Shown here piece by piece: positions 2,103 through 2,388 of a DNA stretch of 5,320 nucleotides. The notes beneath the pieces were generated by a model, which made no database searches, was not told the DNA's origin, and was given only the letters and a program-made list of their open reading frames with translations. The stretch lies in IMG/VR virus record IMGVR_UViG_2690316345_000006, positions 1 through 5,320 of that record. One strand, 5' to 3'. The stretch comes from a virus (lineage: Duplodnaviria; Heunggongvirae; Uroviricota; Caudoviricetes). A program made the translations under genes and the position numbers. The stretch's first letter is position 1. The number at the start of each line of letters is the position of its first letter.

Positions 2103-2132
2103 TTGAAGTTTTGGATAGTGCCGGAATAGAAT
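2103..2132 (+). promoter_or_regulatory. Candidate sigma70 promoter for the downstream small ORFs
   Basis: TTGAAG (2103-2108), 18-nt spacer, TAGAAT (2127-2132). Confidence 0.3.
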
Positions 2133-2214
2133 CAAAAATACTTAAGTAGCGCGCAGGGAGAAGAGGGATGGACCCCGAACAGGGGAGTGCTATTTATCTG
2201 GAAGGATTCTGAAG

Positions 2215-2388
2215 ATGAAAATCGAAGAATTGCGTGAAATTTTTAGTGAAGATGGCCTCTATGCTGTGCGCGTTGAGAATGGAGAAGTTATCTACACAAC
2301 GTTAATTCCTGATGATCATGTGATTTTATCTATCGAGGCATTCATTGAATACCTTGAAAGGCTCGGTTTCAAGGTGGTTCGCGAATGA
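2215..2388 (+). CDS. Small acidic hypothetical protein (57 aa)
   Basis: ATG 2215 with GAAGG 9 nt upstream; reads MKIEELREIFSEDGLYAVRVENGEVIYTTLIPDDHVILSIEAFIEYLERLGFKVVRE; TGA at 2386-2388; preceded by a 14-codon ORF (2168-2212) with its own SD. Confidence 0.5.
   Translation: MKIEELREIFSEDGLYAVRVENGEVIYTTLIPDDHVILSIEAFIEYLERLGFKVVRE

Follow-up and report, generated by a model that had tools for sequence, protein, structure and literature searches.

We analysed a 5,320-nucleotide (nt) stretch of viral DNA (Duplodnaviria; Heunggongvirae; Uroviricota; Caudoviricetes; positions 1 to 5,320 of the IMG/VR record IMGVR_UViG_2690316345_000006; hereafter the window), which is the nin/Q region of an Escherichia coli lambdoid prophage. 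Just after hok, the window carries a small unit consisting of a predicted promoter, a leader of ~76 nt and a gene for a 57-amino-acid (aa) acidic protein. Its homologues place this protein, as a short form, in the Rem antirepressor family, and sequence comparison indicates that the leader in front of it is under strong constraint other than coding constraint. We consider it fairly probable that the unit serves a Rac/Qin-type lambdoid prophage as its antirepressor module, in which short Rem stands behind a conserved leader acting as a post-transcriptional gate. The Rem family is already known, as the K-12 member was described in 2023 (Ragunathan et al. 2023, PMC10448788) and the family is now in Pfam. 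We found no description of the leader in the literature.

The initial annotation of the window had proposed that a promoter, a 14-codon open reading frame (ORF) and the gene of the 57-aa protein form a self-contained unit after the hok terminator. This layout held, and all of its coordinates were confirmed to the base. All elements of the unit described below, from the hok terminator to the rem stop codon, lie on the plus strand.

The 57-aa protein belongs by homology to the Rem family

The short form of rem occupies positions 2215–2388 (stop codon at 2386–2388) and is preceded by its own Shine–Dalgarno (SD) sequence, AAGGA at 2202–2206, which is located 8 nt before the ATG at 2215 and is conserved in alignments. 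It is predicted to encode a small acidic antirepressor; the protein has 13 Asp and Glu against 6 Lys and Arg residues, an isoelectric point (pI) of 4.5 and a net charge of about −7. The initial annotation had not recognised this protein, which can now be assigned to the Rem family (PF27490, phrog_340). Its residues 1–56 match phrog_340 with an E value of 4.3e-18. We also obtained 74 database homologues, with E values down to 6e-27, all of which have a precomputed Pfam match to PF27490, the family named "Rem". The PF27490 assignment of the window protein is made via these precomputed matches, on homologues 88–98% identical to it; the protein itself gave no significant match against the NCBIfam library and a Pfam set without PF27490.

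A homologue in Rac-SA53 (58 aa, 72% identity) is annotated as rem. The rem annotation is found in mEp460 too, and the homologous gene in Rac 442/2 is annotated as "prophage antirepressor". The label "YcfA/HicA-like", given to one homologue by the Joint Genome Institute (JGI), was rejected, as there was no HicA match in Pfam and no match in the PDB sequence or Foldseek searches. Short Rem is common in E. coli genomes, where its usual annotation is "hypothetical protein". A search with one genome per species gave only five loci (Escherichia, Shigella, Salmonella and one metagenome-assembled genome, MAG), and therefore the Rem family is taxonomically narrow. In K-12, Rem of the Qin prophage (b1561, 83 aa) relieves DicA repression of dicBp 165-fold, and this leads to dicBF-dependent filamentation (PMC10448788). 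The earlier guess that a small acidic phage protein of this kind could be a protein inhibitor fits a family whose K-12 member relieves DicA repression.

The rem gene is under purifying selection and its ORF is far beyond chance. The ratio of non-synonymous to synonymous substitution rates (dN/dS) is 0.11 relative to the Rac-SA53 copy, 0.17 relative to the Salmonella copy and 0.21 relative to the E. albertii copy. In a 22-sequence alignment, G14, Y16, V18, S39, E45 and G51 (window numbering) are invariant across the short (57–58 aa) and long (83–87 aa) forms of Rem. The two forms have the first 26 residues in common and then diverge, and the long Rem aligns as the short form plus an inserted segment. 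The AlphaFold model of the 57-aa protein (predicted local distance difference test score, pLDDT, 77) has an alpha-beta-beta-alpha arrangement, in which a two-stranded hairpin is placed between two helices.

The promoter of rem is conserved and the upstream reading frame is not

A sigma-70 promoter is predicted at 2103–2132, with a −35 element TTGAAG (2103–2108), an 18-nt spacer and a −10 element TAGAAT (2127–2132). This was the sole promoter-like site found by the promoter scan in 1600–2600. There is good comparative evidence that this promoter is real: the TAGAAT sequence is invariant among the relatives, and TTGnnn is located 16–18 nt upstream of it in at least 10 unrelated upstream sequence contexts. 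Transcription is predicted to start near 2139–2141. The upstream border of the unit is the intrinsic terminator of the hok mRNA at 2063–2095 (7-base-pair stem at 2063–2080 and a T-run to ~2095), which was found by the terminator scan and is conserved in relatives. The same scan found no terminator 3' of rem up to position 2600. As no terminator is present between rem and Q, transcription from the rem promoter could also feed the late regulator Q, and this possibility suggests that tight control of the rem unit is necessary.

Between the predicted transcription start and rem, an ORF of 14 codons (MDPEQGSAIYLEGF) spans 2168–2212, with its TGA stop at 2210–2212 and an SD sequence GGGAG at 2156–2160, 7 nt before the ATG at 2168. 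Only 2 nt (AG, 2213–2214) separate its stop codon from the ATG of rem at 2215. All of these features, described in the initial annotation, are present in the sequence. The same annotation had likened the arrangement to a leader peptide, and this likeness was not supported by the comparison with related loci. We collected these loci from IMG/VR with a leader pattern, and also with a rem-coding pattern to avoid circularity, and opened the frame from the same ATG in 150 of them (85 unique sequences). They fall into five frame/length classes. In 79 of the 150 loci (53%), the frame has only 3 codons (MVP-stop or MAP-stop; the K-12 and mEp460 type) and ends 34 nt before rem. The window type, with 14–15 codons ending 2 nt before the rem ATG or overlapping it, accounts for 38 loci. 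The frame has 8–18 codons with an earlier stop in 12 loci and is fused in frame to rem in 11 loci (proteins of 72–74 and 102 aa from gene callers). In the remaining 10 loci, it lies in the third frame, is 22 codons long and overlaps rem. The changes of frame are due to indels in codons 3–5 of the upstream ORF, in the loop of a GC hairpin. As neither frame nor length is conserved, the 14-codon ORF is not beyond chance as an ORF. Judged from these loci, it is a frame that this allele happens to open inside a conserved leader, specific to the allele, and not a peptide gene. Thus, of the two ORFs noted initially, the 57-aa ORF proved to be conserved, and the 14-codon ORF did not prove to be conserved as a coding unit; what is conserved instead is the nucleotide sequence of the leader.

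The comparison makes it highly improbable that the 14-codon ORF is a genuine regulatory leader peptide that senses a signal via its sequence or stalling codons, as in attenuation or erm-type control. Such a peptide would accord with the good SD (GGGAG, 7-nt spacing) and the AUG that are invariant in relatives, with a stop 2 nt before the rem AUG in this allele and an end at or over that AUG in 38/150 loci, and with the C-terminal AIYLEGF that is kept in the Rac-SA53 and Salmonella copies. It does not accord with the existence of five frame/length classes, one of which leaves only 3 codons in more than half of the loci. The N-terminal half of the peptide varies by non-synonymous changes and frame-shifting indels, the C-terminal part has in-frame variants (AIYLEGF, ANYPEGFC and VIYPEGFC), and the conserved 3' part coincides with the SD region of rem. 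The conservation of the C-terminal "YxEGF" in the longer versions follows from its overlap with the rem SD (GGAAGGAUUC) and needs no peptide. Similarly, the ATG and the G-rich tract are kept in 124 of 125 rem loci found with the coding-sequence anchor, and the adjacent non-start bases are equally invariant; therefore, conservation of the ATG and SD does not speak specifically for translation. In K-12, no ORF is annotated at this position, and the part of one ribosome-profiling supplement that was available lists none and is uninformative.

The fused alleles raise another explanation, that the upstream AUG is the true start of an ancestral Rem of 72–74 aa with a 16-aa N-terminal extension, the window allele being frameshifted and using an internal start. 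Alleles fused in frame are seen in 11/150 loci, which have GGGGG instead of GGGG; proteins of 72–74 aa are called in hundreds of contigs (e.g. P0077), and in the window the rem frame is open upstream to 2146. We regard this explanation as quite improbable, since most alleles are unfused, the rem SD is at an optimal distance and the extension differs between fused lineages (MDPEQGECYLSGRILL versus MDGPHKGERYLPGRIL). In addition, the distant homologues L127, L173 and L176 start at the equivalent of M1 behind an AAGGAGG or AGGAGG SD and have no extension, and K-12 Rem is active from its annotated ATG with a foreign ribosome-binding site (RBS) (PMC10448788). In Rac-SA53-type alleles (L002; P0077–P0087), the purine tract carries a G-to-T change (GAGGG to GATGG), by which a second ATG arises 4 nt upstream, in the reading frame of rem. 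From this second ATG a 74-aa protein is called in hundreds of contigs, and the usual upstream ATG of these alleles still opens a 14-codon frame.

The leader of rem is more conserved than the gene

The 5' leader of rem extends from 2139 to 2214 (~76 nt). Within it, a 5' block of ~46 nt at 2141–2186 (CUUAAGUAGCGCGCAGGGAGAAGAGGGAUGG-A-CCCC-GAACA-GGGGA) contains a GCGCGCAG box, a purine-rich tract with the SD GGGAG at 2156–2160, the AUG and the GC hairpin. Conservation sets in close to where transcription is predicted to start and continues as far as the rem ATG. When loci were collected with the rem-coding anchor, 122 of the 126 hits had the exact leader; the other four were two loci with one-base differences, one rearranged locus and one unrelated chance hit. 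In the phage database, the leader is confined to 16 records, all of which carry rem.

We compared the divergence of the leader with that of the rem synonymous sites in the same pairs. Between the window and Rac-SA53, 2 of 27 positions of the core and 3 of 30 positions of the 3' leader differ, as against 62% of the synonymous sites of rem. Between the window and the Salmonella copy, the corresponding values are 0/27, 2/30 and 44%. The leader divergence is thus far below that of the synonymous sites (binomial P 3e-9 to 8e-6). In relatives in which identity drops to 47–59% over the 3' leader and coding sequence, the 5' block is still 81–94% identical; in front of a third Rem type it is 83–94% identical, as against 55–59% for the coding sequence. 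Three Rem sequence types thus stand behind this leader, and the sequences upstream of it belong to at least 10 unrelated contexts.

The GC hairpin lies at 2173–2185, in codons 2–6 of the upstream ORF, and consists of CCCC (2173–2176), the loop GAACA and GGGG (2182–2185). We observed 28 sequence variants of this element, all of which fold as a stem of 4–5 G:C pairs with an energy of −5 to −10 kcal/mol. Their loops, 3–7 nt long and with indels, have at least 10 different sequences, and the sole change in the stem is a wobble-compatible C-to-U. The hairpin is also present in all three of the consensus or minimum-energy folds. The variation within the block is therefore uneven, with the CCC(C)/GGGG arms and the purine tract fixed and the loop hypervariable. 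In the more distant homologues of Rem (54 aa; Salmonella, Citrobacter and one MAG), the leader is a different one and its SD is of the plain AGGAGG type.

These comparisons argue for a strong constraint on the leader other than coding constraint. An explanation without any regulatory function is that the leader is a mosaic-boundary segment, recently spread by recombination, with an ordinary promoter and RBS. Sequence identity indeed breaks sharply on both sides of it (upstream of the −10 element and past codon 26 of rem), closely related E. coli prophages with few haplotypes account for most of the copies, no covariation is seen, and the distant homologues are wholly without the leader. Against this explanation, the leader is 10–20 times less diverged than the synonymous sites of the contiguous, homologous rem in Rac-SA53 and Salmonella. 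It also does not match the non-uniform variation, with a hypervariable loop between fixed arms next to a fixed purine tract, or the retention of the block before three Rem types. We consider an inert segment unlikely; if the leader were inert, what remains would be the routine annotation of a small phage gene that is already known.

A proposed post-transcriptional gate for Rem

On the reading that we favour, the sigma-70 promoter just past the hok terminator would transcribe the ~76-nt leader and rem, and probably continue into DUF1367, ybcO and Q. Short Rem, as predicted from homology, would bind a short non-cleavable helix-turn-helix (HTH) immunity repressor of the DicA/RacR/GfoR family and take it off its operators, so that prophage gene expression could start. 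The leader would be a post-transcriptional gate on Rem synthesis, in place of the LexA operator of the Gifsy-type and Citrobacter relatives. The strong upstream SD, with its AUG, would be the loading site of ribosomes, which in this allele would cross the RBS of rem and stop 2 nt before its AUG, so that rem translation may be coupled or modulated. If the AUG at 2168 is used, ribosomes starting there pass the rem SD and stop 2 nt short of the rem AUG, and therefore coupling or interference is unavoidable. Ribosome loading might be decided by pairing of 2147–2166 with rem codons 14–21, by a trans-acting factor on the GGA-rich purine tract, or by both. We infer that Rem inactivates a RacR-like repressor and that the leader replaces LexA control. 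How the gate works is the least certain part of this proposal.

The candidate long-range helix pairs the segment 2147–2166 (UAGCGCGCA, GG and AGAGG), which takes in the upstream SD, with rem codons 14–21 at 2256–2275 (CCUCUAUGCUGUGCGCGUUG). Minimum-energy and consensus folds of 2139–2300 contain this helix and the CCCC/GGGG hairpin, with weak local pairing around the rem start. The leader–coding duplex has an energy of −24 to −29 kcal/mol, compared with about −15 kcal/mol for synonymous recodings, and this difference gave p ≤ 0.006 in most main-clade sequences, which are close relatives and count for about one observation. In the main clade, and only there, the helix encloses the region of the rem RBS. 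The GCGCGC box has other predicted pairing partners in the coding sequences of Rac-SA53 and the third Rem type; a GC-rich octamer, however, finds partners easily.

Several observations weigh against the proposed gate and antirepressor module. The long-range helix is not kept in Rac-SA53 or the third Rem type (p 0.3–0.75) and is weaker in Salmonella. No compensatory pairs were found in any proposed helix, among sequences that are too similar to decide the matter. Whole-leader z-scores are modest (−2.1, −1.4, +0.6 and +0.6), and local hairpins over the rem RBS are no more stable than those of shuffled sequences (z −0.6 to +0.9 in 7 of 8 sequences). The rem gene has a good SD of its own and need not depend on the upstream ORF. 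Moreover, as 53% of the loci, including K-12 Qin and the functional phage mEp460, have a 3-codon ORF, termination–reinitiation coupling cannot be the general mechanism. Phage mosaicism could join a recent leader to an older coding sequence and so inflate the apparent constraint. The immunity region lies outside the window. Similarity to GfoA of Gifsy is marginal (Rem profile versus Gifsy-1 STM2621.1n: hhalign probability 10.6%, E 0.003, 40 columns), which agrees with the fact that Rem was originally linked to the Gifsy antirepressors via PSI-BLAST intermediates. Finally, structure prediction gave a model of the 57-aa protein and no relative of its fold, the best E value being 0.5 for PDB sequences and 1.1 for Foldseek.

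We also considered that, independently of the upstream ORF, Rem translation is set by a host factor or small RNA that acts in trans and binds to the leader (CsrA on GGA motifs, Hfq on the purine tract, or an antisense RNA). The leader has six GGA motifs in ~60 nt, of which two cover the upstream SD and AUG and another covers the SD of rem; the third Rem type keeps a GGA over its own SD. The sequence AGGGAUGG in the leader resembles ARGGAUGU, the CsrA core from systematic evolution of ligands by exponential enrichment (SELEX). Heteroimmune phages with DicA- and RacR-type repressors have this leader in common, which points to a common host factor or a conserved phage factor, and makes control of the leader by the immunity repressor unlikely. 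Antirepressor genes are often RNA-controlled, e.g. isrK-orf45-anrP of Gifsy-1 (PMC4825925). We nevertheless rate such a binding site as rather unlikely. A whole-genome duplex scan of mEp460 gave no convincing complementary partner, the best non-self match being inside the integrase gene, and lends no support to a trans-acting phage RNA. Rfam 15 had no match in 2103–2388 at E ≤ 1; its matches elsewhere in the window were to sok, STnc100, AgvB and tRNAs. An antisense RNA is unsupported, as the promoter scan found no minus-strand promoter in 1600–2600. The part of an E. coli CsrA crosslinking and immunoprecipitation (CLIP) supplement that was available has no entry for rem and is uninformative. 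Readings as an IsrK-like, boxB/nut-like or RfaH ops-like element, examined by eye, were rejected; the positions of the loop and of GTAG vary among the alleles, and no boxA is present.

LexA control of the window rem was rejected, as a search for the LexA box TACTGTATATNNATACAGTA with up to 3 mismatches found none anywhere in the window. The same scan detected its positive controls, the box of Gifsy-1 (37253–37268) and those of the Citrobacter-type rem-like loci L176 (2781–2796) and L178 (807–822), which have the near-perfect sequence TACTGTATATTCATACAGTT. The presence of a LexA box in the Citrobacter copies and its absence from the window indicate that the same gene slot has different control inputs in different lineages. 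In the Citrobacter-type loci, the box comes after a terminator and ~215 nt upstream of a 54-aa rem-like gene, which is followed by DUF1367, YbcO and Q; such a layout resembles that of Gifsy, with SOS control, except that dinI is missing. In Salmonella, the 54-aa copy (L173) has no LexA box.

The signal that induces Rem is stated as unknown in two papers (PMC10448788; later preprint PMC11430063), and no antirepressor other than Rem is known for the non-cleavable DicA/RacR-class repressors of E. coli prophages. As three Rem types share one promoter and leader cassette that is much more conserved than the genes themselves, the ~76-nt leader is a concrete place to look for the missing input of Rem. 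We tentatively suggest, as a possibility that we ourselves find doubtful, that the ~46-nt 5' block is an undescribed cis-regulatory RNA that gates Rem translation on a non-SOS host signal. If true, this would be the missing input that switches on DicA- and RacR-controlled Qin/Rac prophages and their toxic cargo (dicBF, kilR, ydaST). The upstream ORF occurs in natural allele classes (3 codons, abutting rem, fused and out of frame) that lend themselves to direct comparison.

Comparison with known antirepressor systems

Rem of the K-12 Qin prophage is the closest characterised system. It is of the same family, with the first 26 residues ~73–85% identical to those of the window Rem, has the same promoter and leader (5' block 89% identical), and is likewise encoded just after a hok gene and before late-regulator genes. 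It differs in length (83 versus 57 aa), as the sequence is replaced after residue 26 and the long form corresponds approximately to the short form plus an inserted or duplicated segment. The upstream ORF has 3 codons in Qin and 14 in the window. The partner of Qin Rem is DicA, whereas the short form of the window, whose activity is a prediction, likely has a RacR-like partner.

The Gifsy antirepressors of Salmonella (GfoA, GftA and FsoA) are also small acidic proteins (73 aa, pI 4.9) that are encoded outside the immunity region and act on short non-cleavable repressors of the GfoR/DicA/RacR family. The gfoA and gftA genes follow a terminator and a promoter and lie directly upstream of irsA (Lemire et al. 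2011, PMC3121763). In the window, rem is directly upstream of a DUF1367 gene whose product is 53% identical to the protein at the irsA position of Gifsy-1. Unlike the window, the Gifsy loci are LexA-controlled and have a dinI homologue upstream; in the window, a LexA box and dinI are both absent, and rem is preceded by a G-rich leader that includes an upstream AUG and a hairpin.

Phages P1 (c4-icd-ant) and P22 (sar-ant) have antirepressor operons in which an upstream ORF and RNA structure act as the gate. In the isrK-orf45-anrP system of Gifsy-1 there is a small ORF just upstream of the antirepressor gene, and the mRNA is transcribed but translationally silent, its 5' sequence pairing with the RBS of the upstream ORF (PMC4825925). 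This pairing resembles the one predicted in the window between 2147–2166 and rem codons 14–21. In contrast to systems of this type, the window yielded no Rfam match to IsrK and no small RNA or antisense partner, the length of its upstream ORF is not conserved, and rem has its own SD. AnrP is an unrelated antirepressor of a different type. A further parallel is mok-hok, where translation of a short upstream frame can govern a small downstream ORF and long-range 5'–3' pairing keeps the mRNA inert. The hok mRNA is, however, a separate transcription unit that ends at 2063–2095; it has no sequence similarity to the rem unit, and no antisense RNA gene was found at rem.

Repressor partner and gene slot of Rem

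In lambdoid prophages, the rem slot has hok or another terminator on one side and the late-regulator genes (DUF1367/Q) on the other. We recorded the immunity repressor in the fetched loci that were long enough to span the immunity region. The long Rem occurred with a DicA-like repressor in 39/39 loci holding both genes, and the short Rem with a RacR-like 153-aa HTH repressor in 4/4; these 43/43 pairings come from related loci that are not phylogenetically independent. The C-terminal LL.LF..LP motif of DicA and GfoR is present in all of these Rem-associated repressors. Among complete genomes, the nearest is CAU16175 (97% identity across 80% of the window), which has a Rac-like prophage at ttcA that encodes a RacR-like 153-aa repressor together with YdaS/YdaT. 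These pairings suggest that the variable C-terminal half of Rem sets the repressor specificity, and that the likely partner of the window Rem is a RacR-like repressor rather than DicA. They also lend indirect support to the predicted antirepressor activity.

The third Rem-like type (55 aa; MNDKELIAALSIPGNYEVIVLENGEFIVMPLP…, start MNDKELIAALS), which is ~30% identical to the window protein, was found in the IMG/VR loci L008, L029, L037, L053, L059 and L092. It has the same promoter and 5' leader block and a different 3' leader.

Flanking genes and layout of the window

Upstream of the rem unit, the hok/sok locus is intact, with the hok coding sequence at 1837–1992 (Pfam HOK_GEF, E 4e-23) and sok at 1669–1839 (Rfam match). 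Two short hydrophobic ORFs lie between a 277-aa ORF and hok/sok, one at 1376–1453 (25 aa) and the other at 1489–1593 (34 aa, MSDDISLVMEGALAVIAVVGVYCLVVFLMDRLGN); the latter matches a 34-aa hypothetical protein of the nearest genome in position and length. The window starts inside an IS1 element (1–125, minus strand), where 1–71 matches the InsA N-terminal zinc ribbon (Pfam E 3e-12), and hence the prophage region upstream of 126 is interrupted. Because of this IS1 segment, a query with the whole window gave thousands of matches with at least 99% identity.

Downstream of rem, the plus strand carries the DUF1367/irsA-like gene (2448–3047, Pfam E 2e-98), the YbcO/DUF1364 gene (3047–3337, E 2e-43) and the Q-like DUF1133 gene (3334–3888, E 9e-106). 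Next to these are two tRNA genes: one with the anticodon CAT at 4028–4103, called Met by ARAGORN and tRNA-Ile in the annotation of the nearest genome, and one for Arg-TCT at 4204–4280. The two tRNA genes are followed by TerB and DUF3927 genes. The small RNAs STnc100 (5050–5242, plus strand) and AgvB (5243–5304, minus strand) were identified with Rfam. The tRNA-TerB-DUF3927-STnc100-AgvB layout is typical of lambdoid prophages of the enterohaemorrhagic E. coli (EHEC) type.

The spacer of ~60 nt between the rem stop and the DUF1367 start (2389–2447; AGCCAGCCTGAACAACTGGCAACCTACAGCGCCATTGGAGA) is conserved in Rac-SA53, in Salmonella and in the distant MAG locus L127, although the rem leader of the latter is unrelated. 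A GCCAG/CTGGC hairpin is present inside this spacer, and the spacer may belong to the DUF1367/irsA gene as a conserved element at its 5' side.

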